Origin: a bacterium
GTDB taxonomy: Bacteria > SZUA-182 > DTGQ01 > JBLIRR01
Reading direction: 5' to 3'
Length of the DNA: 64,000 bases
Assembly (NCBI GenBank): GCA_049472395.1
Contig: JBLIRR010000029.1
Coordinates: 3,286-67,285, forward strand
Shown: positions 27,809 to 45,700 of the stretch, piece after piece
How positions within the stretch are numbered: position 1 is the stretch's first letter
Layout of the letters: every line of letters starts with the position of its first letter
Translations under genes and position numbers: made by a program
The notes under the pieces: generated by a model
Told to the model about the DNA's origin: nothing
Database searches by the model: none
The model's input: only the letters and a program-made list of their open reading frames with translations

Positions 27809-30049
27809 TTATAATCTCCATTCAACAAATAACAGGTCCGTCATCCAGGGAAGTTTTATTGTGCTGATACTCCATGGCATTTTATCAATTAACACATCAT
27901 AAGCTTTTTCTTCTATGCGCATTACCCACCTACCATCTCGTACACTGATTATCCCCTCCCGCACTAAAAACATCTCTCTAAATCCCCGGACAGATACATT
28001 TTTAAGAGCTGGCCAGTTTTGAATAACTGCTTTAAGAAGATTTTCACATTCATTTATTTCTTTTTCACTAAACTCAACAAGTAATGTAAGAGGTGTGTCC
28101 TGATCAATCCCGCACAGTATTTTATTTAGCATTACTTCATATTCACATGCTCCCCGTAAACCACTGGCTAGATAGTGAAGTAAAAGAACTGCCCGCTCTT
28201 TTTTATCCTCATCAACGAATTGTTGATTCTCTACCAGACCAACTGTATTAAAAAAAGGATTAAGATACGGCCACAATAATACTATGCCTGCATTATTTAT
28301 ATATATTTCTTCTGAGTCATCAAAGGTGTGTCCTTGTTCATGTAATGTTTTAAACGCATGTGTGAGGGGAGTATTTTTAATTGCATTGAGTGAGTTTCCT
28401 AATTTTTTTACAAGAGCATTATCTTGGTCTGCTCTTTTCTTTTCAAAAATATCTCTCAGTTCTGAGTATAGTTTCTTACAATATTCTTGAAATGTTTCGC
28501 CACGCCTTTCAAGTTCATCCGTTTTTTCTTTTAACAGCAGATTATTTACCGGATCAAAGACTCGTTTATCGAAAGTGTGCTCAAAGCTTTTACCTCGTTT
28601 TCCCTGTTTTTCAATTGATTCATTATCTGATTCAATATTTACCTCATGGGGCTTTCGATAATAAATAGTTTCATTATCAATCTGTTTTATGAAAACATGA
28701 AGTATATCAAAGATTAATTTTGATATTTCAGTTAATTCCTTTTTTATTATTTCTATGGATTTTGATAATTTTTGTACAACACCTTTATCCTGGTGTGTTA
28801 TTCCTTTCTCTAAACTATTTCTCAGTTCAAGGTATGGTTTCTCTAAGTATAATTTCTCACAATATTCTTGAAATCTTCTAGCACACTTTTCAAGTTCAAC
28901 GGTTTTTTCTTTTAACACTCGATTATTTACTGGATCAGAGCCCCATTTATCGAAAATTTGCTCAAAGCCTTTACCTCGTTTTTTCTGTTTTTTATTTTTT
29001 TTATCTAATTCATTATCTGTTTTATTATCTACCCTCGTATCTACCTCATGGAGCTTTCGATAATAAATAGGTACATTACCCCTCTCTCTCACTACATCAT
29101 AAATTAATTCTTGTAATAGATTTTCAATCTCGACAAGCTGATTTAAATATTCATTTATGTGAGTATTTGTAATTCCCTCTGATAAAGGTTTATCATTTAC
29201 ATCATATCCTTTTGCTTTCATCTCCTTAGCAATATAGATATATAAAGTATTATAGTTTGTATGAAAAGCCTCGGATAGATGCTCTGCTACTGTGTGTAAA
29301 ATATGTTCATGTTGAAAGATCTGTTTTTTAGAAGCAGCACATAGAGCAACAATAGATACCCATAATTCAGATCTTATTTTGGATGTATTTTCTGAATGAA
29401 GCAGATCACTTGTAGTTAATGCAGAAGTAAGATCTTTTAATATCTTACAAATATCCCTATAGCGGATCCCTTGAATAAGTGCTATGATTTTTTCCAGGAC
29501 CGGATCACGGGAGTAATAAACAAGTCGTTTAATCTGATTATTATTGGGTGCGATATCATAAATCATAGCTTTGATCTTTTGCGGTTGCGCTTTTATTTGA
29601 GTCTCTAGTAACATGGGAATATCATAAAACTCCCCCTTTTTAACCCACCAGGGAAGCCTGCCCTTTTTAATGAAAAAATCTAATAGTTCAAAATCCTTAT
29701 TCTCTTTTGTTATTGTATAAGGTAAAGATGCCCTATTTTCATAAACAGGAGAGGTATATACATCCCCACTGCTCAATGCCTGAGATAGTTTTTGGGGAAA
29801 TATCTCAGATATCTTTCTTTTAAAATCTATTTGAAAATTATCCTGATCAATTTCTCCGAGATCAATCTCAAGTTTATCAATCCTGAAAATCGTGGAGGCA
29901 TCGCTCATCTCGTTACAATACCTATCAATAAGCGATAAAATATCGGTTCGAAAGAATGTACTGAGCATATTTTGAAAACTAAAAGAACCTATTTCCGAAT
30001 CCAGTGTAATATCTAATACCTGCTTTTTTATAATATGGTTCTGGCTCAT
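27809..30049 (-). CDS. eCIS tape measure protein (Afp14-like)
   Basis: N-terminal HIIK...IDKLEIDLG and GRLPWW; C-terminal IYINNAGIVLLWPYL, LNKILCG, FLVREG, PWSISTIKLPW. Confidence 0.92.
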   Translation of the reverse strand: MSQNHIIKKQVLDITLDSEIGSFSFQNMLSTFFRTDILSLIDRYCNEMSDASTIFRIDKLEIDLGEIDQDNFQIDFKRKISEIFPQKLSQALSSGDVYTSPVYENRASLPYTITKENKDFELLDFFIKKGRLPWWVKKGEFYDIPMLLETQIKAQPQKIKAMIYDIAPNNNQIKRLVYYSRDPVLEKIIALIQGIRYRDICKILKDLTSALTTSDLLHSENTSKIRSELWVSIVALCAASKKQIFQHEHILHTVAEHLSEAFHTNYNTLYIYIAKEMKAKGYDVNDKPLSEGITNTHINEYLNQLVEIENLLQELIYDVVRERGNVPIYYRKLHEVDTRVDNKTDNELDKKNKKQKKRGKGFEQIFDKWGSDPVNNRVLKEKTVELEKCARRFQEYCEKLYLEKPYLELRNSLEKGITHQDKGVVQKLSKSIEIIKKELTEISKLIFDILHVFIKQIDNETIYYRKPHEVNIESDNESIEKQGKRGKSFEHTFDKRVFDPVNNLLLKEKTDELERRGETFQEYCKKLYSELRDIFEKKRADQDNALVKKLGNSLNAIKNTPLTHAFKTLHEQGHTFDDSEEIYINNAGIVLLWPYLNPFFNTVGLVENQQFVDEDKKERAVLLLHYLASGLRGACEYEVMLNKILCGIDQDTPLTLLVEFSEKEINECENLLKAVIQNWPALKNVSVRGFREMFLVREGIISVRDGRWVMRIEEKAYDVLIDKMPWSISTIKLPWMTDLLFVEWRL

Positions 30050-33000
30050 ATTAAGGCCTCGTTTAAATCAAGCCCCCATTTTATTGATAAATAATTTTGC
30101 ATTTTTGCTATTTCATCGTCTGATAGTACCCTATCAAGAACAATAATCTCCGCGATGTCGCCTTTAAAATAATTTCCTCCTGTATTTACCGCGCCGATAG
30201 TAAATCTTTGAGAGTCTTTTATAGACATATTACGCGCAAACCTGGCCTGTACGGGATTGGCTTTATCCACGTATAGTTTCACTAGACCTGTATCTTTTTT
30301 CCTGGTAAAGATTCCAATATGCATTCTGCCAAATGATGAATTAGCTTCAATTTTATAATCGCTTTCACCAATTACTCCGATTCCGGCAATTAATGTGCCC
30401 TCTTTACCGATCAACATTCCAAAATCTCTTTTACTTATATCAATAGGATCTCCAGAGCAATTCCCATCAAATAGACCGACACCTTCAAACCAGTTCTGGG
30501 TAAGGAGCACATTGATAATCGCTGATTCGATGATATTTTCCATATTCACTACCAGAGAAAAATCCTGTGTATCTAGTGTAAATTTTGGCAATACATTGCC
30601 ATCACCATCAATATATCCATTTTCTTTTAATTCGTTCCATAGTGCGTGTGATAATGTCTCATTAATACCCCCTATACTGGTAAATGCATCCTGCGGAACA
30701 GGTCTTAAGGCATCATTGCTCTCTGATACAATGGCAATTATTCTTGATTCTATCTCGATCCTGGCATTGTCAAGGATAGTGGTATTCAAATCAAGAGTAA
30801 AACCTTCTTCAATAGGGGTAAATGTTGACAATACATTCCCATTATCATCAATAAATCCATTATTATTTAATTCTTCCCATATCGTCTGTGACAGTGGTTC
30901 ATCAATGCCGGCTATACTTATAAATGCATCTCGGGATACCGGCATATATTCACTGATTTCCAAATCCGTATCTGTTTTATATATTACAATAACGGTGAAA
31001 TCATCCTTTACCACACGTGGAAGAGTCAAATAATTTTTATAATTACTATCAAAATGCACAACTCCAAGACCATTATACGCATCCGGTCTATATATAGGTT
31101 GGTTATCCAGATCAGCCTGTACGGCATCATAGTTATGACCATTAATATCAAGCCACTTAGATATCTTATTATCTGCATCGTCTTTGATAACAGTTGCTAT
31201 TTTGCTTGCATCAAGGTGAAGTACCGGTTTTACAATAGCGTTAATACCTGATATATCTATTCTCCATTTCATAGATAGGTATTTTTCTAAATACTGTCTC
31301 GCCTCAGTATCTATTACCTCGTTTAATAGAACAATTTCTCCTATATCCCCATGGAAATACCCTTTGCTTACCGGATTATCAGACGGTATATGTATTGCGC
31401 CGATAGTTAATTCCAGTGAATCATTAAGGGAAGCCCCAGGCGCAAAATCATTCCCGGTTGATACTAATAATCCATCAAGATAAATTTTAACTTCACCATC
31501 AATACGTTTTCTACTTATAATCGCTATATGGGGAAAATCTAGTAAAGAAGATGAAGCAATGCTATTTATACCGATACGTGCTGTGAGCATATTATTTCTA
31601 TTAATTGAAATACCAAAATGATTTAATGTATATTCTTCAACATAGCCGTCAATAATCCCGGCCCCATATTCCCAGTCCGGGTGTATATTCCCAGGTGATA
31701 AAGCCTTATATACAATAGCTATGGTAAAATCATCATAAGAGGTTGTATCGGGAGTGACATTCATAAAGCTGTTATTAAATCGTATCCCTGCCATTCCATT
31801 GATACTTTCCCCGCTATATAATGGTTGACTCTCAAGTATCTGCTGCAGGGCAACAACTTCACTTATATCATTCACATCATACCACTCTGATACCCTATTA
31901 TCCGAATCCTTTGTAATACTTTTAGTATCAGCCGCATCTAAATGTAGACTGCAGTGTGTAATATCGATGGGTAGACTCGTTAAGGGAACCCGCCATTTAG
32001 TAGATAAATATTTCTCTATTTGTTGTCGCTTTCCTTCTGTCAGATGGGTATCAAAAAGGATAATCTCACCTATACTGCCGTGAAAAGGAATTCCTTCACT
32101 GTTAAAAGCCCCGATTTTAATAGTTCTTGAGTCATTCAAGATGACACCATCCCTTAAATCAGCCTCCGCATGCAAAAGACCGTCAGCGTATATCTTTACC
32201 TCACCTGTTGATTTTAATCGTGTAAAAATAATCATATGGGTGTTATCAAAATTAAGGTCCCTTGTTTTAATAGTATGGTCTTCGGTTAATCGGTCCCCAA
32301 TACCACCCATGACAACCATCTTTCCTTCAGATTGCCCGATTGAAAGTCCAAAGTCATTATATAGACCGGAGCAATCAGCATCAATTAAGGCTGCCCCCTC
32401 TGTCCATTTGGTGCTCTCATTGACATTTAAATCTAAGTCTGAATCCTGGCCTAAAGAATCCTGACGTAAATAAAAGTTAACATCAGGTTTAAAAACTACC
32501 ATAATAGTAAAATCATCCTGAATGATTCGATTGATGTTAAGAGAATCCTCATAAAAATCCGAATCATTTATTTTTTCCTGGGTAAAGGTCACTGCCCCTA
32601 ATCCATTTATTCCATCTACTGTATATGCAGGTCTTCTATATATGCTCTGTTGGAGTGCATTATTACCATAATAACTAAGATCAACCCATTGAGACACCCT
32701 GCTATCCTTGTCAATTATAGGGCCCTCTTCATCCATGACAGAAGCTTGTCTTGATGCATCAAGGTGCAGCACCGGTGTGGCAATATAATTAATCCCTGAT
32801 ATATCAATATTCCATTTTATTGATAAATATTCCTCAAGCCTTTGCCTCTTCCATATTGATAAAGCATTGTTATAAATCACTATTTCACCAATATCACCAA
32901 TGAAATCATATTCCCTTGTCCGACTCTGCCCGATCAGGAGATTATCCGGCCCCTTGCTAAATGCCTCTGAATCTGAAAATGTCGTGCTGTTAAATGATTT

Positions 33001-36000
33001 ACCATCACGATATATTGTCATCTTTAGTTCACTTCCAACAACCTTGCCTGAGATAATTGCTATATGAGGATCACCAACTGTTGCGGATATAGATATCTGT
33101 TCATCTGCGGATATAGATATCTGTTCATCTTCCGCGCAAACCAGGATATCTCCTTTCTTTTCAATAGAAATGTAGTAACTTTTCTTCCCATCATCAGGTT
33201 CTGTGACTGTTCCGTCAATTAGGCGGCCTTCCTCTTTATCAGCTTTGTATACGAAAGCAATGGTAAAATCTCCCTCAAAAAGTCTGTGTTCACCAGAATT
33301 GGGAATAGTAAGAGAGGTATTGTTAAATCGTATTACTGGCAGTCCATTTATCCCATCTACAATATATTCTGGTTGGAGAGATACTGTGTTTTGGATAGAC
33401 GAAATACCTTGTAAACTTAAATCATTCCATTGTTCGACGGTGTTTGTTTTTTCATTTCTTATGACACTCCGTGCGTCACTTGCATCCAAATGGAGAGAAG
33501 GTTTTTCTATAGAGCTTACTGATGATAAGGCAATCCCCCATTTACTCGATAAATGCTCCTCCAACTTCTCTTTTCTACTCCCTGATAATACTGAATCAAG
33601 CATGATAATCTCTCCGATATGGCATGTTGCTGTAATGCCTGCGCCAGGCCCAATTATAAGTGATTCTTGGTTGAAAGATATATCTGCGTTTACGAGTATT
33701 CTAGAATTATGCAACACGCCATCAATAAATAAATTAAGCGTGCCTGTTTCTTTATCCCTGGTAAGAATTGCCATATGAGGAATCTCTGATGTTGACTCTA
33801 TGGTAATAGTATCATTATTTATACGTGTAGTTAAATCTCCCTTCCCATTAAATGACAACCCAAAGTTATCCTTATTTGGATCAGCTCCTGCCACCAAATT
33901 ATTCTGCTCCTCGCCATTATTTGATTCCCCTGCTTTATATATAATGACAATAGTAAAATCATCATGAAGGATTGATTTTTTTATCTTTAACTGTGCTCCA
34001 TTCTCAAATCTTAAAAACGCATGTCCGCTTTTCTCTATTGTTATAAACCTTGGTTCAGAACCTGCTTCGTGCATTGCATCATTATTATTGCGGCTAAGAT
34101 CCTTCCATAATGTTATTGGGGTTTCATTATCAGGGCACTTGTCATCTCCGGCTATATTGTAAGCATCCAGATGCAGAACAGGAAGTTTTACACGGCCGAT
34201 ATGGAGCAGTTCAATAAGTTTATTCCTGTATGGATTATAGTTATCCGAATTATCCTGCGCACTATTTCTTAATTCATGTAAGAAATTATGATAGGTATCA
34301 GTGAAAAGACTCATTTGATCTGAGTCAAATTCCCTTATGGTATATGATATATAAGCCGGTGTTTCTGTTTCTATGGTATTATATACTAATTCCTTAAATT
34401 TACTATTACCAAAGCGTCCTGCTTTCTTCGGAATAATAAAAGTCAGCTTATATGAATAGGGATCTGGCTGATAGTCTTCTTCAATTTTTTCCGAACAGAT
34501 AAACTCTAATGGAAGGAAACCATCAGGTCGCAGGAGAATATGCTCAAGAATATGAAAGTTATCCTGTTCGTTTTTATCAGCGGAATTTTTTATATAGACA
34601 TCAAGTCCTAATTTTGAGGAGAGTATGTCCTTAAGACCATTGATATTATACCCTCCTACATCTTCTGCAAAATAATTATATGCTCTATTTCTATTTCTGC
34701 TCAGCCTGGGATAATTTTCCAAAAAATCTGCTTTAGCTTTCAAAAAATATGGTTTTTTCTCTTCCGGATCAAGGTCTATGAGCATATTATATTTATAGCC
34801 AAACAATGCATAATCAGCAAATTTCTCATTAAATTGAGCTAAAAGATGGTTTAAAATTCTATTTTTCCGTATAAAGGCATTTTCATTAGCATGTATACCT
34901 TCATTTTGATCATCTTCTATAAATTCGTAACCTTCTTCTATCTCAGGGAAATCTTCTTTCCATATGGATTCAGGAGGCAGTTGTGAGAAATACGTTTTAA
35001 GGATATCTTCCTTGTTTTGTCGAAAGGAAAAAATATCCTTAAAGCTATCAAGCTGTTTAAGATAATTAATGAGTATTTGTTCAAAAAATAATAAATACGC
35101 TCTTAACTGTTTTGCCTGTGCTCTCCTTCTATCATTAGCTGCAGAAGGAAGTCCGGTTTCGCTGATCCCGAAATTGGCCGGCAGCTTATATGCGAGTGGG
35201 TCATACGCGGTTAAATTTGAATATTCACCCAAAGATTCTTCTATATCCATTGCCGGATCATCAAATATCTCTGTTCTGCTTTGCTCTTTTAATTTTTCAA
35301 CTTTGTCTGTTACCTGATTTGCGCTCACGGGACACATGGTTTCATCTTTGAACACACGTATTCTTGTGCTATTAAAATCCTCTAATAACAAAGCCTTTGT
35401 ATCATCCAGCACGAGCGCCCATTCTTTTTTCTCTGTAAGCTCAGGGTGTGGTTTGTTTGAAATAAACAAATTTTTCACATCCTTCACCTCTTCATGAGCC
35501 ATTATGATACGAAGCAGGTCAGAAGTATGCAGCTCTCTTCTTTTTTCTCCACTGCCAAGCTCATCATCATCAATAAATCCGTTCTCAAGCTGGGGACCGT
35601 TGAATATTTCTTCTATTGATTTGCCCTTTTGGAACATCTTTTTTAGGCTATATTGTTTAATACGGGGCGAGATAAAACTCTCAAGATCAAAATATATTTT
35701 AGCCATCACTTCATCGGCATCGGCATCCTCATCGATCCTAATATCAGAAAACAGGGAAATAGTCTCCTGCTCCATAATATTAATCTTTACAAATTCTTCG
35801 CATATATTTCTATGATTATGAAGTATTTCTTTTACCTTACGCGTAAATGCCTCATTATCTTGTAGATAAACTATATTTTCATCTTTTATATCTTCATCTC
35901 TCTCAATATATACTCTATATAATCCGTTTAATGTAACTTTTTGAGAACCTGTCGCATAATCATATACTAGGGCATTGTTATCTTTATCGTAATAGAGAGT

Positions 36001-36339
36001 TGGCTTGGTATCTATAGCAGGAGTGAGCCAGGCGTTTTTCACACCGGGAATATCAATTAAGAGCTTTCTATAATCATTGATAGTGACGGGATTAACGGTT
36101 AATATTTCTCTCGGGGAGAAAAATTGTTGTCGTGTTCCCTCTTGTGAATTATCGGTAAGGATATTGTCTATGGGGAGGGATAACCGTGTTTCTAAATCTG
36201 TGATTGCAAAACAAAGCGTTTCAAAGATTGTAACACCCGGATCATGAACATTATAATCTGTCCATATATGACCGGTCATTGTCTGCAGGTATTTTAATCC
36301 CTCTTCTCGAAGTATTTCCCAATTGATTGTATTGTCCAT
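30046..36339 (-). CDS. eCIS baseplate protein Afp12-like, extended by five LamG/ConA-like repeats
   Basis: N-terminal WTDYNVHDPGVTI, DYRKLLID.PGVKNAW, RNICEEF, ILEHILLRP, DPYS; then five LHLDA...GEI...YLS.KW repeats. Confidence 0.88.
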   Translation of the reverse strand: MDNTINWEILREEGLKYLQTMTGHIWTDYNVHDPGVTIFETLCFAITDLETRLSLPIDNILTDNSQEGTRQQFFSPREILTVNPVTINDYRKLLIDIPGVKNAWLTPAIDTKPTLYYDKDNNALVYDYATGSQKVTLNGLYRVYIERDEDIKDENIVYLQDNEAFTRKVKEILHNHRNICEEFVKINIMEQETISLFSDIRIDEDADADEVMAKIYFDLESFISPRIKQYSLKKMFQKGKSIEEIFNGPQLENGFIDDDELGSGEKRRELHTSDLLRIIMAHEEVKDVKNLFISNKPHPELTEKKEWALVLDDTKALLLEDFNSTRIRVFKDETMCPVSANQVTDKVEKLKEQSRTEIFDDPAMDIEESLGEYSNLTAYDPLAYKLPANFGISETGLPSAANDRRRAQAKQLRAYLLFFEQILINYLKQLDSFKDIFSFRQNKEDILKTYFSQLPPESIWKEDFPEIEEGYEFIEDDQNEGIHANENAFIRKNRILNHLLAQFNEKFADYALFGYKYNMLIDLDPEEKKPYFLKAKADFLENYPRLSRNRNRAYNYFAEDVGGYNINGLKDILSSKLGLDVYIKNSADKNEQDNFHILEHILLRPDGFLPLEFICSEKIEEDYQPDPYSYKLTFIIPKKAGRFGNSKFKELVYNTIETETPAYISYTIREFDSDQMSLFTDTYHNFLHELRNSAQDNSDNYNPYRNKLIELLHIGRVKLPVLHLDAYNIAGDDKCPDNETPITLWKDLSRNNNDAMHEAGSEPRFITIEKSGHAFLRFENGAQLKIKKSILHDDFTIVIIYKAGESNNGEEQNNLVAGADPNKDNFGLSFNGKGDLTTRINNDTITIESTSEIPHMAILTRDKETGTLNLFIDGVLHNSRILVNADISFNQESLIIGPGAGITATCHIGEIIMLDSVLSGSRKEKLEEHLSSKWGIALSSVSSIEKPSLHLDASDARSVIRNEKTNTVEQWNDLSLQGISSIQNTVSLQPEYIVDGINGLPVIRFNNTSLTIPNSGEHRLFEGDFTIAFVYKADKEEGRLIDGTVTEPDDGKKSYYISIEKKGDILVCAEDEQISISADEQISISATVGDPHIAIISGKVVGSELKMTIYRDGKSFNSTTFSDSEAFSKGPDNLLIGQSRTREYDFIGDIGEIVIYNNALSIWKRQRLEEYLSIKWNIDISGINYIATPVLHLDASRQASVMDEEGPIIDKDSRVSQWVDLSYYGNNALQQSIYRRPAYTVDGINGLGAVTFTQEKINDSDFYEDSLNINRIIQDDFTIMVVFKPDVNFYLRQDSLGQDSDLDLNVNESTKWTEGAALIDADCSGLYNDFGLSIGQSEGKMVVMGGIGDRLTEDHTIKTRDLNFDNTHMIIFTRLKSTGEVKIYADGLLHAEADLRDGVILNDSRTIKIGAFNSEGIPFHGSIGEIILFDTHLTEGKRQQIEKYLSTKWRVPLTSLPIDITHCSLHLDAADTKSITKDSDNRVSEWYDVNDISEVVALQQILESQPLYSGESINGMAGIRFNNSFMNVTPDTTSYDDFTIAIVYKALSPGNIHPDWEYGAGIIDGYVEEYTLNHFGISINRNNMLTARIGINSIASSSLLDFPHIAIISRKRIDGEVKIYLDGLLVSTGNDFAPGASLNDSLELTIGAIHIPSDNPVSKGYFHGDIGEIVLLNEVIDTEARQYLEKYLSMKWRIDISGINAIVKPVLHLDASKIATVIKDDADNKISKWLDINGHNYDAVQADLDNQPIYRPDAYNGLGVVHFDSNYKNYLTLPRVVKDDFTVIVIYKTDTDLEISEYMPVSRDAFISIAGIDEPLSQTIWEELNNNGFIDDNGNVLSTFTPIEEGFTLDLNTTILDNARIEIESRIIAIVSESNDALRPVPQDAFTSIGGINETLSHALWNELKENGYIDGDGNVLPKFTLDTQDFSLVVNMENIIESAIINVLLTQNWFEGVGLFDGNCSGDPIDISKRDFGMLIGKEGTLIAGIGVIGESDYKIEANSSFGRMHIGIFTRKKDTGLVKLYVDKANPVQARFARNMSIKDSQRFTIGAVNTGGNYFKGDIAEIIVLDRVLSDDEIAKMQNYLSIKWGLDLNEALI
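33082..33129. repeat. Perfect 24-bp tandem duplication (DEQISISA x2) in the Afp12-like gene
   Basis: TGCGGATATAGATATCTGTTCATC occurs twice in tandem, in frame. Confidence 0.9.
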
Positions 36340-36366: not shown

Positions 36367-39300
36367 TTATGCTCCGAAATAAGAAACTTTTACTGTAATC
36401 TCTTCTGCGGATGTATTTTGAATTGTTAAATCAGCAGTATCATAATAAATATTAAAGGTTCCCCCATCTTGTTGGTCTGCCATTTCATCCCCCGATATCT
36501 TCGTAATCATATCTGTCCCATGGATTGCAAAAATCCCGGCTAGTGCGCTGCTCTCCGTGGTAATATGCACCATCAACATCCCCCTGGAATCGGCAGTCAA
36601 TGTAATATCCCTCACAACACTGGTATCAACTGCTTCAACTGAAATGTCTGTAAGTGCTTGTAAGTTTGCTTTGGCGGCTAAGGCAGTATCCATGGCTGCT
36701 TGATCTGCCTTGGTAGCTAAGGCCGTTTCCATTGCTGTTTGATCCGCCTTTTCAGCTAATGCTGCATCCATTGTTGTTGTATCTGCCTTTGTCGCTAAAG
36801 CACTATCCATTGCTGACTGATCCGCCTTGGCAGCTAATGCGGTTTCCATGGCCGCTTGATCCGCCTTAGCAGCTAATGCGGTTTCCATTACTGTTATATC
36901 TGCTTTGGTAGCCAATGCAGTATCCATCGCTGTTTGGTCTACTTTGGTAGCCAATGCTGATTCCATCGCCGCTTGATCCGCCTTTTCAGCTAATGCTGTT
37001 TCCATTACTGTTATATCTGCTTTGGTAGCCAATGCAGTATCCATCGCTGTTTGGTCTACTTTGGTAGCCAATGCTGATTCCATCGCTGCTTGATCCGCCT
37101 TTTCAGCTAATGCTGTATCCATTACTGTTATATCTGCCTTAGTGGCTAAGGCGCTGTCCATTGCCGTTTGATCTGCTTTAGCGGCTAAAGCCGTCTCCAT
37201 TGCTGTTTCATCTGCCTTGGTAGCTAAGGCCGCCTCCATTGTCGCTTGATCTGCCTTGGCAGCCAAAGCCGTTTCCATTGCCGTTTGATCCGCCTTTTCA
37301 GCTAGTGCTGCATCCATCGTTGCTTGATCTGCTTTAACAGCAAGTCCGTTATCAACATAAGTCTTTACTGCCTTTTGTGTTGGCAGTAGTGCATTACTGT
37401 TTTCATCTAAGGTTTCATTGTTGGAAATATTATTTATTTCTATATCAGAACCACCAAAACGTAAATTCCCATCTATAGTAATTGTATTGGTCCTTATTAT
37501 GCCTTTGCTAAATACGTTATTTTCTTCATTGATTACTAAATCATTATGTGCATCTGATACGGTTATCTGCGTGATATCCTGTTTTGTAATACTAAAGTTA
37601 TCTTTATACTCAGCAGCAAGTTCTTCCCAGAAAGCAAGAAGCTCATCGACTGTCCCTGATTTATTCGCCGGGTATTTGATAGTCATTATTTTGAGATCAT
37701 CAATTGAAATATCAAAAGTATTATTTCCCGCATCTTGAGATTGAATAACAACTCTTGGTGTATCATTTTGAGAGTCAAAATATCGAACGCAAATTCCATC
37801 AACACCCTGTGTTGTCGTATTGTATTCCTTAATGACTGCCACTAGAGTTTCTAGAGTTTCTTCCTGTTCTACTGCTATTTCACCAGCGGTCCCACGATCA
37901 GGGATATCAAAACCATGCGTGTCTGTATCCGCCTCCATAACATCCTGCCATGCCGCAAGAAGATTGGATACAGTTCGATTATCCGGATTTATTGGGTAGT
38001 TGATGGTTAATAATGTAGTATCAAAAATGAACGTAAAATTGTCACCACTCTCCTGCAATCTCACTGTCGCTTCTACCATGGGATCACTTGTAAATGTTAC
38101 AGAAAAACCCGCAATATCTGTTTGGCTATGGCTTCCATCTGTGGGAGTTAAGGATTTCTCCTGGACTACATTGATAGCTGTAGTATCCTGTGTCTCTTTA
38201 ATATCCCATCCATAGGTATCATTACCGAATGCCTTCCATTTTTTCCACGCATTATAAACATCTTGAGGTGTCTTCTCTATTTTACCAAGAGTAATCTCAA
38301 TAGTATAAAGAGAAACAGAGAATTGAATTTTTTCATCTGAACTTGGAGCTGCTGCTTTTATGGTTACTTCAGGCAGTTGATACATCTCTGAAGGACCTAT
38401 ATTAATTATTCTCAGCTCCCCTGTTTCATATTCTCTGACCACTTCATTTGTAAGAGTAAGGGATTCAGACGCATCATCAATCAGCCATTCTTTATCTCCT
38501 GTCTGTTGGATCTCAAAATATTGAGCCTCAATTTCATTATCCTGTTTCCATTTATCCCAATCCCTAAGGAGATTCTCAACAGTGCGAAATGTACTATCAT
38601 CAGGGTACATAATTGTTAATGTAATGCCGCTGATTATAAAATTAAACTTACTATTCGTTATATCATCATTTGCGCTGATAATTATTTGAGGTGTTTCAGA
38701 CCCAAATCCCGTATATACTATTCGAATTCCATTATCGGGAATTCTGAATTCTTTGAATACTACCCCCGAGGAATATAATCCTATTTCTGTATCCCTTATC
38801 TTCCATGAACCCACTCCTACTTTTCTGAATGAAAAACCCTCGGCGATTTCAGGATTATTTTTTTGAAAGACATTCCAGTCACTTATTAAATAGGCTATAT
38901 CCGAAGTATCATCATAAGTAACTGTTACTTCTTTATCATCACTGATGGTTATATCAAAATGGCCCTCTCCTGCGTTTACGGTTCCTTTGAATATGGTAAT
39001 TTTTGGCGAGATGTCCGCGGCTCCCTCAAATGATGCATATATCTTCGTACTTCCCAGAACTGCATTATTAAGGGCATTAAATAAACCATTAATACTAAAC
39101 GTCCCTTCACTTTCAAAATTTTTGACAGTTGCATTATTAGCAGTGAGAGAATCAAGCTCAATTGACTGTATATTGAGACTATTGACTGTAAGATTATCAA
39201 TGATCGTTAGATTTTCAATAGTTGTATTTCCTAGTTGAGCAGTATCCAATGCAGTAAAGGTGCCGCTCACACGTGCGCCGTTCTCAGCTTCTAACTCTTC

Positions 39301-40467
39301 CCCACTCACTATAGCGCCTGCTTGAGCGTGCAGGGCTTCGTCGGTAACAACAATTCCTTTATTCGCATACACTACACCATGCGCTGTGATACTTCCATCA
39401 CTGTCATTCCCAAGAATAACCTGACCATTAGCATTTAAGGGTGAATCAATAACGGATAATCCTTCCTGTGCCGTTAACAGACCTGTTTCTATGCTTCCTC
39501 CATTTCTTACCGTTAATCCATCCTCCGCTTTTAACTCTGCTCCGTTTACCAAAGCTCCTTTAATAGCCTTTAACACACCATTAATAGTGACATCACCATC
39601 TGTATCATTCCCAAGAACAACTTGCCCATTAGCATTCAGAGATGAATCAATAACAGAGACTCCTTCCTCTGCGGTTAATTCTGCTCCCTTCACTACAATT
39701 CCTTGTTTTGCTTCCAGGATTCCTGTTTCAATCACGATCCCATCATTTACTATTACCCCATTCTTAGCATCGAGCGCTAATCCGCTGACTTCGGCTCCGG
39801 CTTGAGCTTTTAAAGTCCCACTTTGTATTGTAGCTCCATTATTTACTGTTAATCCATTCTCTGCTTTTAGCTCTGCTCCATTAACTGTCGCTCCCATCGT
39901 GGCTTCTAACTTTGCACCATTGACTGTCGCACCTGTTGTTACTTCTAATTTGCCACCAATAGATACATCACTTTTCAAGTTCACAGTACCATCTACCGCA
40001 AGTTTATATGAATCAGGATCATCAGTGCCAATACCCATATTTCCATTTGATTCTATAACCAACGAAGCATTTCCTGATGTATCATCTACTCTTAAGGCAT
40101 TGTCAGCATCCGGAATTATATGAAGCGTGGCCTGGGGATCATCATTATTTATGCCAATGGCTCTATCTTCCCGTTTCATGAATAGTCTACTTGAGTTATT
40201 TGATGAAAAATTAAGGCCGTTTCGTTCCCCGTCTTCTGATTGGGCATTGATTCTCCAGGTAGGGGTATCTTTGCTGCTGCTAAAATCAAGAAATCTTCTG
40301 TTTAGACCTTGTTCGATGATTTCCATTGGTTTGCCTTTTTCCGAGGCACCAATACCATCTTCCGCAATATTTATCATAGAATCAATGAGATCTGCAAAAT
40401 CATCCTGGGTAGGTTTATTTCCAGTAGCAAACAGATCATATAATTCCTCTCTTTTTTTACTCGGCAT
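36367..40467 (-). CDS. eCIS long tail fibre (Afp13-like, fibre 2)
   Basis: N-terminal REELYDLFATGNKPTQDDFADLIDSMIN docking motif, GNMGIGT repeats, beta-rich repeats, PTQKAVKTYVD and a coiled-coil repeat. Confidence 0.82.
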   Translation of the reverse strand: MPSKKREELYDLFATGNKPTQDDFADLIDSMINIAEDGIGASEKGKPMEIIEQGLNRRFLDFSSSKDTPTWRINAQSEDGERNGLNFSSNNSSRLFMKREDRAIGINNDDPQATLHIIPDADNALRVDDTSGNASLVIESNGNMGIGTDDPDSYKLAVDGTVNLKSDVSIGGKLEVTTGATVNGAKLEATMGATVNGAELKAENGLTVNNGATIQSGTLKAQAGAEVSGLALDAKNGVIVNDGIVIETGILEAKQGIVVKGAELTAEEGVSVIDSSLNANGQVVLGNDTDGDVTINGVLKAIKGALVNGAELKAEDGLTVRNGGSIETGLLTAQEGLSVIDSPLNANGQVILGNDSDGSITAHGVVYANKGIVVTDEALHAQAGAIVSGEELEAENGARVSGTFTALDTAQLGNTTIENLTIIDNLTVNSLNIQSIELDSLTANNATVKNFESEGTFSINGLFNALNNAVLGSTKIYASFEGAADISPKITIFKGTVNAGEGHFDITISDDKEVTVTYDDTSDIAYLISDWNVFQKNNPEIAEGFSFRKVGVGSWKIRDTEIGLYSSGVVFKEFRIPDNGIRIVYTGFGSETPQIIISANDDITNSKFNFIISGITLTIMYPDDSTFRTVENLLRDWDKWKQDNEIEAQYFEIQQTGDKEWLIDDASESLTLTNEVVREYETGELRIINIGPSEMYQLPEVTIKAAAPSSDEKIQFSVSLYTIEITLGKIEKTPQDVYNAWKKWKAFGNDTYGWDIKETQDTTAINVVQEKSLTPTDGSHSQTDIAGFSVTFTSDPMVEATVRLQESGDNFTFIFDTTLLTINYPINPDNRTVSNLLAAWQDVMEADTDTHGFDIPDRGTAGEIAVEQEETLETLVAVIKEYNTTTQGVDGICVRYFDSQNDTPRVVIQSQDAGNNTFDISIDDLKIMTIKYPANKSGTVDELLAFWEELAAEYKDNFSITKQDITQITVSDAHNDLVINEENNVFSKGIIRTNTITIDGNLRFGGSDIEINNISNNETLDENSNALLPTQKAVKTYVDNGLAVKADQATMDAALAEKADQTAMETALAAKADQATMEAALATKADETAMETALAAKADQTAMDSALATKADITVMDTALAEKADQAAMESALATKVDQTAMDTALATKADITVMETALAEKADQAAMESALATKVDQTAMDTALATKADITVMETALAAKADQAAMETALAAKADQSAMDSALATKADTTTMDAALAEKADQTAMETALATKADQAAMDTALAAKANLQALTDISVEAVDTSVVRDITLTADSRGMLMVHITTESSALAGIFAIHGTDMITKISGDEMADQQDGGTFNIYYDTADLTIQNTSAEEITVKVSYFGA
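36673..37335 (-). repeat. 17 x 39-bp (13-aa) tandem repeat K(A/V)DxxxM(D/E)xALAx
   Basis: Counted from the translation; units 6-8 are nearly identical to units 9-11. Confidence 0.95.
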
Positions 40468-40567: not shown

Positions 40568-40936
40568 CTATTTTTTTTCATAATCAATATCAACAACTTC
40601 CGATCTTGCTTTCTGGCGCTCTGTAAGCAGGGCTTGATATTCCTCGTCTGTCAGCGAAGTTGCTATTTCCATTTCCAGTTGTTCTCTGTGCCTGGTAATT
40701 TTCCAATCAGTCCCTCTTAGAATACTCCTGTTCTTTCTATTTTTTTCTTCCTGAATTTCTTCAGGACTCAATTCCGCTTCGATGAACGTGCCATCAACAT
40801 AAGCTTTTCCAAGTATTGTGAAGTCATCCTCAACACCCTCCACTTTCACCTGCGCCTCATTTTTATCGAAATAGTCTTCATTTACACGGACATCACTTAC
40901 TCCAACACATATATTATCCTTTAACTGTGCATACAT
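40568..40936 (-). CDS. Phage-type tail fibre assembly chaperone
   Basis: MYAQL..NICVGVS start and RSILRGTDWKITRHREQ...LTDEEYQALLTERQ..R; directly after fibre 1. Confidence 0.7.
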   Translation of the reverse strand: MYAQLKDNICVGVSDVRVNEDYFDKNEAQVKVEGVEDDFTILGKAYVDGTFIEAELSPEEIQEEKNRKNRSILRGTDWKITRHREQLEMEIATSLTDEEYQALLTERQKARSEVVDIDYEKK

Positions 40937-40948
40937 TTTATCTCTTCC

Positions 40949-42709
40949 TTATTTGATCCATAATCCATAAAAAGCGACAATTCCATATGCCCGTTGTTCA
41001 CTATTACCCACCCAGCAACGGACACGATCATGATATTTAATTCCATAACAGGCGAGAGTATCATTTCCGTCAACACCTCCGGCAAAATATATCCTACACG
41101 GTGATACTGAAAAACAACGTAAATGAGCCATAGTATAACCAGCAGGTGGATAGACATCCACATAGGAATCATACCCATTCCAAATACGCCCCCCTGACCA
41201 CCCTTGGTTAGCGTAGTAAAGTCTATTATCACAATAATAAGAGGGATGTGGTATTTTGGCATCTAGATTTGCAATTTGAGAATCAACATATTGCTTTATC
41301 GCCCCTTCTGTCGGAATAGAGCTATTATCGTTATCATTAACTGTCGTGACAATATGAGAAACAGGTTGCCCCCCATCGTCCAATCTTAAATTTCCTTTAA
41401 CAGTTAAGTCACTGCTTATGCTCACAGAATCCGATATATTGACCGAACCAATAGTTGATCTTACCGTGCCATTGAGATTGACATAATCAGAGGTTGAATT
41501 TCCTAATGTAGCTGTTCCATATACATTTAAATCACGATTTTGATTGGGATCCCCTATTACCACATTATCATCTATGGTTACATCTGCACTGCCCGCTCTT
41601 TGCACTGTCCCGTTAAGATATATATGGTCATTGCCCTCATTATTCCCTAACGTATTTGTTCCAAGTACGGTTAAATCACCCTTCACATCCACTCGTGGTG
41701 AATTTGGGTCCCTGTTTACCGTCAAGATTTCATTTATTTCAAGCTCATGCTGCTCTTCACCAAGATCGGGATTACCCCCAGAGCGGACCCTGCCATTTAT
41801 GCTTACCACGTTATAGTGCTCAGGGGAAGGATTATATGTACCTAAGGTGGTGTCACCTTGGACCTGTAAATTACCGTCCGAGCCCTCTTGATTAGGATCG
41901 GCAATAACGTTGAGGTTATCCTTTATGGTTAAATCCTCTGTTTTTGATGTAAGAGGTGCATTTATTTCTATCCCCCCCACACCTTCGCCGTTGGAGAATA
42001 CCACACTCCCTCCAACCTCCAGATCACCTTCAACATAAAGATTATTGCTGCCCGGATTCCTGTTATCCCCTATTGCTACGCCACCCTGCACCGTTAATTC
42101 TGCCTTCGGTTCATCATATCCTATTCCCACATTTCCTTTATCATCGATAATAAAAGGTGTTGTGTCCTCGCTGACATCATCTACCCTCAGAGCATCTCCT
42201 CCTCCTGAACTATTAATGTGAAGCTTTGCGGCAGGTCGCTCATCTCCGTGCCCTATGCCAATCCCCACTTTGCCGTCAGAGGTGATAATGAAGGGTGTCT
42301 CATCATTTCCCTCATCATCCACCCTTAACGCATCTGTGGCGCTGGTCTGTTTAATATGTATTTTTGCTTCAGGCTCATCAGTATTTATTCCCACATTTCC
42401 TGTTTCCCGTTCTACATACAGCTTGCTCTTATTATCCGCTTTTATATTAAGCCCTTCTTTTGTTCCCTCTTCAGAACGTCCTGTGATTCTCCATCGTTTT
42501 CTCCCATCCTTATCCGAAAAATCAAGTATATTCTCCTCTTCTCCATGGGCTCTGAAACATACCGGATCATCTTCATCTTCAGATATATCGATACCATCAT
42601 CCAAAAGATTCAACTGGGATCTGATAAAATCCGCAAAATCCGCGCCTGTCGGGATCGCACCCTGTCTGAATTTATCATACAATTCTTTTCTCTTTCTTTT
42701 TTGTATCAT
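40949..42709 (-). CDS. eCIS tail fibre (Afp13-like, fibre 1) with a phage-type tip
   Basis: RKELYDKFRQGAIPTGADFADFI N-terminus, GNVGI repeats, PTEGAIKQYVD, tip VYPPAG...IYFAGGVDGND...NSEQR. Confidence 0.82.
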   Translation of the reverse strand: MIQKRKRKELYDKFRQGAIPTGADFADFIRSQLNLLDDGIDISEDEDDPVCFRAHGEEENILDFSDKDGRKRWRITGRSEEGTKEGLNIKADNKSKLYVERETGNVGINTDEPEAKIHIKQTSATDALRVDDEGNDETPFIITSDGKVGIGIGHGDERPAAKLHINSSGGGDALRVDDVSEDTTPFIIDDKGNVGIGYDEPKAELTVQGGVAIGDNRNPGSNNLYVEGDLEVGGSVVFSNGEGVGGIEINAPLTSKTEDLTIKDNLNVIADPNQEGSDGNLQVQGDTTLGTYNPSPEHYNVVSINGRVRSGGNPDLGEEQHELEINEILTVNRDPNSPRVDVKGDLTVLGTNTLGNNEGNDHIYLNGTVQRAGSADVTIDDNVVIGDPNQNRDLNVYGTATLGNSTSDYVNLNGTVRSTIGSVNISDSVSISSDLTVKGNLRLDDGGQPVSHIVTTVNDNDNSSIPTEGAIKQYVDSQIANLDAKIPHPSYYCDNRLYYANQGWSGGRIWNGYDSYVDVYPPAGYTMAHLRCFSVSPCRIYFAGGVDGNDTLACYGIKYHDRVRCWVGNSEQRAYGIVAFYGLWIK

Positions 42710-42731: not shown

Positions 42732-45700
42732 CTAATAAACCATAAAGGGGTATTGACTTCTCCCATCAAATCCCACACCTGTTTTTAATATGGTAATAAT
42801 ACTTCCTTCAACTTCATTTATATTCGTTATTTCTTCCACACTGTAACTAAAATCGTCTGTCTCTTGCGCAAAGGAATCAAAATCTGCAGCAGAAAATTCT
42901 CTATTAAAACTAAATTGAGACAGATTACTCTGTAAATAGTCTTTAAAACTTTCTCCCTCTGAAACCATGAAATCAAAATCCTCCGCAAAAAGGTCAATGG
43001 TCGACAGTACGTTTCCTTTAGTATCAATATATCCTGCCTCTTTTAATGTATCCCAGATCTTCTGGGAGTCACCACGGGAAAATCCTGTTTCAATTTCTGT
43101 ATCATACTCTGTGCCTTCTACTATCCATTTTACCTTTATTGTCACAGCTACATTGGTAAAAATATACCGCAGGATGGGCCAGGCTTCTAATTCCATTGCC
43201 CCAATACCGGCAGCGAATACAGGGCCAGGCCTTGATATCCAAAAATCCGTTCCTATTGTCATATAACCGATTCCTCTAAAAGAGGCGGCATCATACAGAT
43301 CAGTCGTAATGACGTCTATAATATGACTTTCTGCGGACACTAAAAGTGAATCAGGATACTTTACTGTGGCGGCATTATCTTCTGTTAAAAAGAGAGGAAT
43401 AACCTCTGTGTAATTTTCATGGACTATTATCTGATAAAGAAGTGAAAAATTAGCAACATAATCTACATATTCTATGTTTTCTATATAGTTAATTACTGAG
43501 GAACTATACACAGAACTGCCGAAAGAAATTTCTGCTTCTTTCTCATATGCCCAGGGGGAGAGAAAACGTTTTATATCTTCATTGAGTTTGTTGATATAAA
43601 ATCCCTGATCATATCCTTCTTTAAATTTCACTGCCAGTCTATATTTAATTTCTTCAAACCGTGGATTTCTCACTTTCACACTGACCATGGGCGGCATATA
43701 CGATTGTATATACCTTTCAATGGCGCTCAGGATAGTGGCTGGAGTCTTGGGTTTCAAAGGGAAAAATGGTGCTGTATTCACATTCTTAAGAATGACGACT
43801 ATTATAATTTCACCTTTGTTCGAAGAATCTAGTATCTCAAGCTCGGTTTGAGATATACATTTTACTTTATATATCTGTGGGAATTGTGAGAGTATCATTT
43901 TTTCATAGTCATCTAATGTGAGCGCTCTATTTTTATGTTTTAACCTTTCACTCACCCGCACATAGAAATTCTCACTTTTTTCCTCTCTCTTGCCGTTAAA
44001 TGAGCTGTAGGGTTGCTCTACTTCTTTTATTGAATAATCCCTTTCAAGCATCTCTTTTATTGTACCGGCCCCGAGGGGTGTTTCTAAATGACTGGGATCA
44101 TTATCTTTATTGATATATTGTACACAAATTGACTGAGCACGGATGTCCAGGATATCAGGAACAGCGGTAATATTATTCAGGGCTTCCGCACGTATCCAGA
44201 GTCTTCCCGCGGGTAAAATTGTGTTTGTGGAAGTTGCCCCTTCCGGAATCATGAACCTGATAATACCTGTATCCTGCAATCCGAATGTTGTATCCTTCAA
44301 TATTTCCAATTGCTTAAATTGTATCCATTCATTAGAGGCCAGATAGCTCCATTGAATCTCCGGAATTGAATAGTTTACATCTCCACTGCCGGACATCATT
44401 TGAACGAGTATGGAAATAGTTTGAAGAGGCTTCAAATTTTTTATTCCAATCAAAAGATACCCCTGCTTATCATACTGAGTCAGGAAATAATCATCCTCAT
44501 CAAGTGGCCTTCCCATTTCCTTAAATCCGAAGGGATGGAATCGAAAAAGTTGAACAGGAACATCTGTAGTAGTATTGTTATCAGATACATTATCAAGGAG
44601 CATATTTGATGAAGCAGTATAATCAATGCTCATTGATTGGATTATGGGAGTATAGGGGGCAGGCAGAGTAAGCTGACTAATATCTATTTCATTCTCAGGC
44701 ATGGAAGGCAGCTTTCTTGCCTCGGGTATAACCGGTGGGTAATAGGGATCATTCTTTACTCGTGCTTCTGCTTCCGCAATCTTTGCTGCTTTTATTGAAG
44801 CTTCTCGCGCCTTTATTTCCTGCGCTACCGCCTTATAATTATTTTCAGCCAGAACACTCTCCTGTGATGCACGGGTAACCTCATTTCTTAAGTCTGCATA
44901 AAGATCTTTCATAAATCCCTGATTGCAGAGCTCCATCTTATAGTAGCGCGGCCAATGAAGAGGATCTTTTGGAAAATCTTCATTTTCTGAAAATAACTCA
45001 CCCTGGTATGTCTGATTATCAAAATCATTATAGGACAATGTCTTCTTAAACAGCATTTGAGGCTCTTCCGAGATGTTTAGCCAGGTGCGTTGATCGAGAA
45101 ATTTGAGCGCTACTTCAAAATCATTATTTTTAATGGTCCCTGCTTTCTCTAATCCGCAATGGGAATAAGCATAATAGTAGGTCTCCATATCCGGAAGTTC
45201 TGCTTCTGGAGTGAGTTCTCCTCCTGCCCATGTGAAATGAATATGCATTGAATCCAGTTTCTTCTCGCATATATCCCTGTGGGCAAAATAAAATCTGGCC
45301 GATACGTCAGGGGTAAGACCAAAGGGATGAAAAGGATTTTGAGGATTAATCATTGCCACATCACCACGCATCTTAATATCCATGAGCCCTTTTACCGACA
45401 CACTAAGATCGATTCGTTCCATACAAATAGATTTGAAATATTTATAAAAAAAAGCTTCACTTACGTTTAAAATTTTTATTACCGGATAAGGTGAAAACCT
45501 ATCTATTTGTAATGGCACGACCGAAGGAAATTCCCCATCAAGAGCTATGGCGAATTTAAGAGCATTTAAACAGATCGCATCCTTTTCATAAAGGGCAATT
45601 GTATCATAGGATTCAATAGCTCCTGCATATTCAATAGTCACATTGTTTTTATCCATTCTCTCAGTAATTGAAAATATTTCACCATTCTCCCATACTATCT

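Follow-up and report, generated by a model that had tools for sequence, protein, structure and literature searches.

Why would a baseplate wedge protein of a contractile injection system (CIS) carry a long tail of lectin-like domains? This question is raised by a CIS locus in a window of 64,000 nt, the whole stretch of DNA analysed here, from contig JBLIRR010000029.1 (GCA_049472395.1); all coordinates are window positions. At 30046-36339 on the minus strand, a single uninterrupted open reading frame (ORF) encodes a Cis12/Afp12-type wedge protein with five LamG/ConA-like (concanavalin A-like) domains in an array at its C-terminus. The binding choice of CISs is mostly credited to their tail fibres, and the engineering of PVC-type nanosyringes swaps fibre tips. 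If a wedge subunit itself bore a multivalent lectin-fold arm, specificity or anchoring could evolve at a second site as well. Guided by fold models, we propose, with about even confidence, that the array is a flexible arm by which the baseplate sticks to a polymer, most probably a carbohydrate, on the surface of the cell to be injected.

The array can be traced by two motifs, each of which occurs five times in the ORF: LHLDA (aa 722, 949, 1191, 1465, and 1707) and [YH]LSxKW (aa 929, 1171, 1444, 1687, and 2083). These positions delimit five units (aa 719-945, 946-1187, 1188-1461, 1462-1703, and 1704-2097) that measure 227, 242, 274, 242, and 394 aa. The linkers are short, with ~12 residues from the YLSxKW helix to the next LHLDA strand. 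Aligned to unit 1, the units show 29-31% identity, and 27 columns are invariant over all five, including L-H-L-D-A, W27/D29, D-F-T, the I-x-E-I of an IGEII-like segment, and L-S-x-K-W. The repeat pattern is far beyond chance: with a hidden Markov model (HMM) of the five units, the same domains were recovered in homologues encoded by other genomes, at E-values of 1e-29 to 1e-80 per domain. An earlier note on this DNA had described five ~230-aa repeats at 30070-34190, a span that corresponds to the C-terminal 1379 residues of the ORF. All of the motifs that it quoted are present, including DPYS...ETPAYI of the core at ~aa 626-665, confirming the observation; four units fit the quoted length, but the fifth is much longer because of a ~150-aa insert. 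The features of the gene are as follows.

30046..36339, minus strand: whole gene, Cis12/Afp12-type baseplate wedge protein with C-terminal LamG array, 2097 aa, 237 kDa
34186..36339, minus strand: Cis12 core, gp6/gp7-like wedge part, aa 1-718 (~715-aa core), from alignment to Alg12 and All3315
33505..34185, minus strand: LamG repeat 1 (R1), aa 719-945; PF13385 E 9.5e-5; orthologue clade support 99/94
32779..33504, minus strand: LamG repeat 2 (R2), aa 946-1187; PF13385 E 4.4e-8, 33.9 bits; clade support 96/99
31957..32778, minus strand: LamG repeat 3 (R3), aa 1188-1461; most conserved repeat; AlphaFold2 pLDDT 89, pTM 0.90
31231..31956, minus strand: LamG repeat 4 (R4), aa 1462-1703; PF13385 E 1.9e-3; clade support 100/96
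30049..31230, minus strand: LamG repeat 5 (R5), aa 1704-2097; jelly roll split by an insert; PF13385 E 4.5e-7
30490..30945, minus strand: helical insert within repeat 5, ~aa 1799-1950, ~150 aa, in a loop of the jelly roll
30787-30945 and 30547-30705, minus strand: two copies of a 53-aa unit in the repeat-5 insert

Both profile matches and structure models point to a LamG/ConA-like jelly roll. PF13385 (Laminin_G_3) matches four stretches of the whole protein with 106.1 bits, against a curated cut-off of 27.6. Single repeats gave E-values of 4e-8 to 2e-3, with two of the five above the cut-off (R2, 33.9 bits; R5, 30.6 bits) and R1 (23.0), R3 (22.5), and R4 (18.8) below it (E 9.5e-5 to 1.9e-3). 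R3 and R5 were modelled with AlphaFold2 from alignments of the repeats in the window with the orthologous repeats of homologous loci, and each was predicted to form a two-sheet beta sandwich with a C-terminal helix, with the pLDDT and pTM listed above for R3 and a pLDDT of 76.6 for R5. By alignment homology to the modelled repeats, R1, R2, and R4 are assigned the same fold.

The models were compared with 48,161 PDB representatives using VIA-align. The best match of R3 was a cyanopodophage Pan3 tailspike domain (9vyh_q; Z 21.1, rmsd (root-mean-square deviation) 2.4, 210 aligned residues), followed by the arabinan-binding domain 4 of AbnA (5hon; Z 19.8), the lectin-like HCN domains of clostridial neurotoxin receptor-binding fragments (Z 18-19.5), a trans-sialidase lectin domain (Z 17.2), the PilC pilin lectin module (7oa8; Z 16.7), the family 40 carbohydrate-binding modules (CBM40) of sialidases (2vw0, 6er4; Z 15.7), pentraxins (Z 15.4), and laminin/neurexin LG domains (Z ~13.8). 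Foldseek concurred on these neighbours. R5 returned the same list, with Z 19.8 to 9vyh_q and 210 residues aligned across model residues 1-387, a span which indicates that both halves of this repeat form one jelly roll around the inserted helical segment. The assignment of the repeats to this fold in the earlier note is thus borne out by the PF13385 matches and by both models. At the sequence level, the repeat profile found the CBM40 of NanB sialidase as its closest solved relative (E 5e-5), with C-reactive protein and SAP next (E ~2e-3). The named neighbours in BFVD were phage proteins (ConA-like lectin/glucanase, minor tail, tail fibre, and virion structural proteins), and the nearest non-CIS sequence relatives of the repeats carry GH39 or Fn3 domains.

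Since ConA-like folds also occur in enzymes, one or more repeats might instead be glucanases or lyases that cut surface polysaccharide. Glucuronan lyase, GH16 (glycoside hydrolase family 16) glucanases, and carrageenases do match R3 at Z 13-14, and a distant sequence relative is fused to GH39. However, these catalytic matches lie 5-8 Z units below the non-catalytic binding modules. The catalytic pattern of GH16 enzymes is E-[ILVMF]-D-x-x-E, and it occurs in none of the five repeats; no glycoside hydrolase or lyase Pfam family was matched either. On these last two grounds we rejected an enzymatic role, which we regard as highly improbable.

The insert of R5 was kept in all 10 aligned homologous repeat-5 (or duplicated repeat-6) domains, drawn from nine loci. 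Its 53-aa unit has a consensus of approximately P-V-x-x-D-A-F-x-x-I-x-G...L-S-x-x-I-W...G-Y-I-D-x-x-G-x-V-L. With a profile of 16 unit copies, no Pfam family was common to more than one of the 16 members, and the sole PDB profile match below E 0.01 was a weak one to mosquito SGS4 (E 0.0015, 26 residues). All VIA-align matches listed for the R5 model were to the jelly roll.

Upstream of the array, the protein is a Cis12 homologue. A phmmer search against PDB sequences returned seven matches, all of them Cis12-family baseplate chains (E 1e-111 to 4.5e-20): All3315 of the Anabaena thylakoid-linked system, tCIS (7b5h; E 1e-111), Alg12 of AlgoCIS (7aeb and 9wsz; E 2e-90), 9qgl (E 7e-31), SalCis12 (E 1e-29), Pvc12 (6j0n; E 7.6e-27), and Afp12 (6rao; E 4.5e-20). 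This ranking identifies the protein as a Cis12 of the AlgoCIS/tCIS branch, not of the Afp/PVC branch. Its earlier description as an Afp12-like baseplate protein therefore named the right family, but Afp12 itself is only distant kin. Nothing from NCBIfam or PHROGs matched the core.

The alignments also locate where this Cis12 departs from its solved relatives. Residues 5-586 align to Alg12 7-578 and residues 608-668 to Alg12 757-814; residues 5-580 align to All3315 18-611 and residues 591-711 to All3315 1160-1297. The two core blocks (aa 5-586 and ~591-714) are nearly contiguous here, with only ~5-20 residues between them, and are set apart by ~180 residues in Alg12 and ~550 in All3315. The internal variable domain of the relatives therefore appears to be missing, and the variable mass lies at the C-terminus instead. 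Judged from these alignments, the core is a minimal version of the AlgoCIS/tCIS-lineage Cis12 that lacks the internal variable domain. Excerpts of the AlgoCIS report describe the gp7-like part of Alg12 as an evolutionary hotspot and the C-terminal part as too flexible for modelling (PMC8894135). In the solved homologues, Cis12 pairs with Cis11 as a heterodimer that is present six times per baseplate (PMC8894135, PMC8894136, excerpts).

How might such a protein act? In the mechanism that we propose, the wedge subunit would carry its five ordered jelly-roll domains as a C-terminal arm of 153 kDa. If the baseplate has six copies of Cis12, the number seen in solved CISs, 30 modules and ~0.9 MDa of extra mass would be placed at the baseplate periphery. 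The arms would bind a polymer on the target-cell surface by avidity, and their action would add to that of two separately encoded fibres. The data show the identity of the core and the repeats, the fold, the operon context, and the conservation of the array; we infer that the array is exposed at the periphery, that it adheres, that its ligand is a glycan, and that the surface it binds is that of the target cell. Glycan binding by the repeats is plausible from their fold neighbours. Several observations led us to this adhesive arm: its C-terminal position, given the flexibility described for the C-terminal part of Alg12; the fold neighbours, the great majority of which are binding modules without catalytic activity from enzymes, pili, toxins, and phage tails; the fusion of the nearest non-CIS sequence relatives to GH39 or Fn3; and the carbohydrate-binding modules (CBMs) of the Alg11 cage, which have been published as proposed attachment modules (PMC8894135, excerpts).

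How often is Cis12 extended in this way? A word-seeded search, confined to the length range 1153-3670 aa, yielded 634 homologues of Cis12, and PF13385 was present in 35 of the best 120 of these. Thirty of the 35 (P0001-P0030) are 2048-3185 aa long with core identities of 51-69%, and the array recurs with its order unchanged in ~30 protein clusters from metagenome-assembled genomes (MAGs) that carry the labels Bacillota, Desulfobacterales, and SAR324. MAGs under these three labels also showed the full architecture when one genome per species was scanned, in a non-exhaustive search seeded with two peptide patterns. When loci were examined with the five-repeat HMM, exactly five domains, in an unchanged order, were found in six of ten and six domains in two of ten, and the remaining two were cut by contig ends. 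Public annotation calls some such proteins merely 'LamG domain-containing protein'.

An exhaustive HMMER search with the core across 1.84 billion representatives placed these proteins within the wider family, which comprises 3825 representative clusters at E <= 1e-3. PF13385 was found in 8 of the best 150 of these 3825 (five from precomputed labels and three from scans of the other 135 representatives), and our own HMM added one more, giving 9; at least five LamG domains were present in three of the best 150. The commonest Pfam-visible add-on was DUF1508 (PF07411), which occurs in 21 of the best 150 representatives, most of which have no Pfam domain. DUF1508 in these relatives (P0131, P0144, P0150, and others) lies mostly beyond ~aa 600, from around the internal variable site onward. 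With a limit of E <= 1, the LamG profile had no match among the seven solved Cis12-family chains, and the Cis12 proteins of the Nostoc, Leptolyngbyaceae, Acaryochloris, and Fulvivirga loci, at 749-832 aa, are without LamG. By the earlier note's own standard, its reading would fail if such fusions were common in known Afp12 proteins; with 8-9 carriers among the 150 nearest representatives, they are not. The fusion is a minority architecture that is conserved and no one-off.

Within its own genome, the LamG subtype occurs in this ORF only, apart from one weak match (E 5.6e-8). The protein was found in none of 40 relatives of the host genome (completeness 59-100%), and the host is the sole member of its family in the genome collection searched. 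Its absence from these relatives and the mixed labels of the MAGs suggest that the locus spread horizontally. Standalone short proteins with a repeat-3-type domain gave five matches, of which three are close (62-68% identity, 199-1010 aa, two of them <270 aa) and may be fragments of such Cis12 genes.

The repeats themselves record an old and ordered array. A midpoint-rooted maximum-likelihood tree was built from 40 LamG domains of 11 proteins: 6 of the 30 main-clade proteins plus P0031, P0035, P0124, P0140, and P0248. P0032-34 and P0228, whose domains were not delimited by our own HMM, were left out of the tree. The domains sorted by position, with a separate clade for each of R1 to R5 and no clade supported below 96. 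The three LamG domains of P0031 (1415 aa) group with R1, R2, and R3, and the two of P0248 with R2 and R3; P0124, P0140, and P0035 have one or two C-terminal LamG domains, and in P0023 the additional sixth domain arose by duplication of R5. Copy number among relatives thus runs from 1 to 6. On this phylogeny, either the array grew stepwise or R4-R5 were lost in the shorter forms. In P0034 (1413 aa), a LamG / Toxin_R_bind_N-type domain is inserted near the N-terminus, between the core equivalents of aa 62 and 72, which shows a second, independent entry site of a lectin-fold domain into the Cis12 family.

Conservation differs among the parts of the protein. Mean identity to this protein (P0001) over 20 homologues was 61% for the core, 59% for R3, 56% for the C-terminal half of R5, 49% for the N-terminal part of R5, 46.5% for R4, 43% for R2, 42% for the R5 insert, and 41% for R1. 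Residues of R3 that are invariant over 21 homologues include an acidic stretch at aa 1320-1331 (D-A-D-C-S-G...N-D-F-G) and a second stretch with D1394, D1397, N1402, and D1403. The fixed and deeply conserved order of the repeats, with a clade for each position, would also be expected if the array were architectural, and the short linkers could be explained in the same way. We nevertheless consider an architectural role unlikely: the nearest fold relatives are binding modules, not lattice-forming domains, and a copy number of 1 to 6 suits an appendage that varies in reach or valency better than a fixed lattice.

We next turn to the genes around Cis12, which bear on whether the array could act together with fibres. 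The following neighbours are relevant here.

27809..30049, minus strand: CIS tape-measure protein (Cis14), PF19268 E 1e-113
36367..40467, minus strand: fibre-like protein B, 1366 aa, with a ~160-aa N-terminal domain in common with the 586-aa protein
40568..40936, minus strand: tail-fibre-assembly-chaperone-like protein, 122 aa (phrog_188 9e-8, phrog_8716 2.4e-8)
40949..42709, minus strand: fibre-like protein A, 586 aa, with an N-terminal domain in common with the 1366-aa protein
42732..49961, minus strand: giant Cis11, 2409 aa, Baseplate_J at aa 1964-2135

Together these genes belong to a complete CIS operon on the minus strand. Its Pfam matches fall within 24532-55547 and cover the sheath, tubes, VgrG, gp25, Baseplate_J, tape measure, Pvc16 cap, and AAA ATPase. 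The order begins with the sheath, two tube proteins, a CIS_tube protein, a VgrG-like spike, gp25, and the 2409-aa Baseplate_J protein (Cis11). The 586-aa, 122-aa, and 1366-aa proteins and Cis12 come next, and the tape measure, a Pvc16-type cap, a 417-aa protein, and the AAA ATPase follow. The Cis12 stop overlaps the start of the tape-measure gene by 4 nt. This synteny is kept in five related loci (L002, L003, L010, L011, and L012), and the locus encodes a complete CIS of the extracellular type (eCIS).

The ~160-residue N-terminal domain of the 586-aa and 1366-aa proteins is also found in the same-position genes of related loci, and we read these two proteins as fibre-like paralogues on the basis of this domain. 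Against PDB sequences, the 1366-aa protein had no match and the 586-aa protein had chance-level matches only. The presence of two fibre-like paralogues and a chaperone-like protein directly upstream of Cis12 indicates that the system is not fibre-less. The earlier suggestion that the array gives recognition or anchoring independent of the fibres therefore needs qualification: a binding array stands as a proposal, but it would add to, not replace, the two encoded fibre-like proteins. The paralogues and the 122-aa chaperone lie between Cis11 and Cis12, and in Afp/PVC they follow Cis12.

Could the LamG domains serve these fibres directly? They might form a docking platform for the two fibre proteins in place of the internal fibre-binding gp7-like domain of AlgoCIS. 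This Cis12 is without an internal variable insert, the gp7-like part of Alg12 contacts the tail fibres in AlgoCIS (PMC8894135, excerpts), and R3 and R5 are conserved like the core, all of which would fit such a role. Yet the LamG-free Cis12 loci of Nostoc, Leptolyngbyaceae, Acaryochloris, and Fulvivirga still encode fibres with the same N-terminal domain, and the docking site of the Cis13 trimer in tCIS is a C-terminal extension of another subunit, Cis11 (PMC8894136, excerpts). Because the LamG-free loci keep the same fibre N-terminal domain, we judge docking to be quite improbable.

Other parts of the locus are recorded here as separate observations. The ~1950 N-terminal residues of the giant Cis11 are without a match except for phrog_33902 at aa 97-193, and its homologues in L002, L003, and L011 have the C-terminal 900-1400 residues in common; by analogy, this protein may form a spike cage like Alg11. 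Right after the AAA ATPase, at 22732-24510 on the minus strand, a 592-aa protein matches T6SS_Tse3_N (E 4.6e-9) and, more weakly, MgtE_N; it is a candidate CIS cargo or effector. The 2.1 kb between the sheath gene and a radical-SAM gene (55548-57651) contain short ORFs only and may represent a decayed gene. One of these, an 82-aa ORF at 56863-57111 (minus strand), resembles, by eye, a DUF4157-type eCIS-associated domain cut off soon after its start. Upstream of the CIS operon, at 59171-64000 on the minus strand, a protein of >1600 aa runs past the window end; its repeats are of the right-handed beta-helix, PKD, and Chlam_PMP types. No RNA families were found in the window with Rfam.

How well, then, does the adhesive arm account for these data? 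Several points weigh against it. A shared fold is not proof of function, and the ConA-like fold is also used for protein binding and catalysis. R3 and the C-terminal half of R5 are conserved nearly like the core, which is unexpected of diversifying receptor-binding tips and could reflect a conserved partner instead. The operon already encodes two fibre-like proteins. Finally, the Cis12 extension of tCIS anchors the machine to the thylakoid membrane of the producer, not to a target (PMC8894136, excerpts).

This last point leads to the strongest rival, drawn by analogy from the closest solved relative, in which the LamG array would hold the loaded particle to some part of the producing cell, be it envelope, membrane, or matrix. 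Among solved proteins, All3315 matches the core best, at the E-value of 1e-111 given above. Its extra domain (aa 610-1100) is described as a wide connector that links tCIS to the thylakoid membrane (PMC8894136, excerpts), and the high conservation of R3 and R5 would suit a conserved self ligand. However, the tCIS extension is an internal insert that is absent here and contains no LamG domain, and no hydrophobic stretch of at least 17 residues occurs anywhere in the 2097-aa protein. Moreover, the locus is found in MAGs labelled Bacillota, Desulfobacterales, and SAR324, groups whose envelopes differ, and in none of the 40 relatives searched, a spread that argues for a portable, host-independent function. 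We therefore assign a small probability to a producer tether. The high conservation of R3 and R5 fits receptor binding no better than it fits this explanation or an architectural array.

If the adhesive arm is correct, it could be taken further, to a version that we regard as tentative and rather less than likely. Receptor recognition would have moved onto the wedge as the LamG arm grew from 1 to 2-3, 5, and then 6 copies. With 30-36 sites per particle, its avidity for a surface glycan would position or trigger the baseplate without relying on fibres, with R3 and R5 as the tips and R1, R2, and R4 as spacers. If true, this would constitute a second, fibre-independent targeting layer that could be used in re-engineering nanosyringes. 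The effect of valency and reach on binding could be followed along a ready-made series of relatives, which carry one, two or three, five, and six domains. The value of the adhesive arm is that of a testable hypothesis, which rests on inference from the fold rather than on a demonstrated mechanism.

Parts of this picture are already published, namely Cis12 as a hotspot for peripheral domains and baseplate subunits with carbohydrate-binding modules. LamG domains on a baseplate subunit of a CIS were not described in the open literature that we searched; subscription journals, bioRxiv supplements, and the supplementary tables of PMC12923769, PMC8894135, and PMC8894136, which could list such proteins, were outside this search. 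In excerpts of a 2026 catalogue of eCIS receptor-binding domains (eBAP1-5), Afp12 appears only as a fibre docking partner (PMC12923769). The LamG-array Cis12 thus seems to be undescribed.

Comparison with known systems helps to place it. All3315 (7b5h) and Alg12 (7aeb, 9wsz) have a homologous wedge core in the same kind of operon, and in both, Cis12 is a site of lineage-specific peripheral add-ons (PMC8894135, PMC8894136, excerpts). Their extra residues (~180 aa in Alg12 and ~550 aa in All3315) are, however, internal inserts that lie between the equivalents of query aa 586 and 591-608, whereas this protein appends 1380 aa of LamG domains at its C-terminus. Afp12 (6rao) and Pvc12 (6j0n) belong to the same family, but only the N-terminal 100-300 residues align. 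The Alg11 spike cage of AlgoCIS is similar in that sugar-binding-type modules, proposed for attachment, are part of a CIS baseplate subunit (PMC8894135, excerpts); it differs in that Alg11 is a Cis11 forming a central cage with two CBMs of other folds, and here five LamG domains extend from the C-terminal periphery of Cis12.

Outside the baseplate, the Pan3 tailspike, AbnA domain 4, CBM40, PilC, and HCN domains share the predicted fold (Z 15.7-21.1), but with identities of only 12-17%, and none of them is a five-fold array on a wedge protein. The fibres of eCISs (Afp13/Pvc13; eBAP4 group) likewise use lectin-type domains on flexible chains as a receptor-binding strategy (PMC12923769, excerpts). 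Those fibres are separate proteins with N-terminal baseplate-anchor domains, in contrast to the modules here, which are covalently part of the wedge subunit. Such an N-terminal fibre-anchor domain is absent from this protein, whose N-terminus is the Cis12 core, and is found instead on the 586-aa and 1366-aa neighbours. The array widens the published view of Cis12 as a hotspot, which was based on internal inserts, to include long arrays of domains at the C-terminus, in a design that recurs in a small group of uncultured bacteria and extends a known theme.

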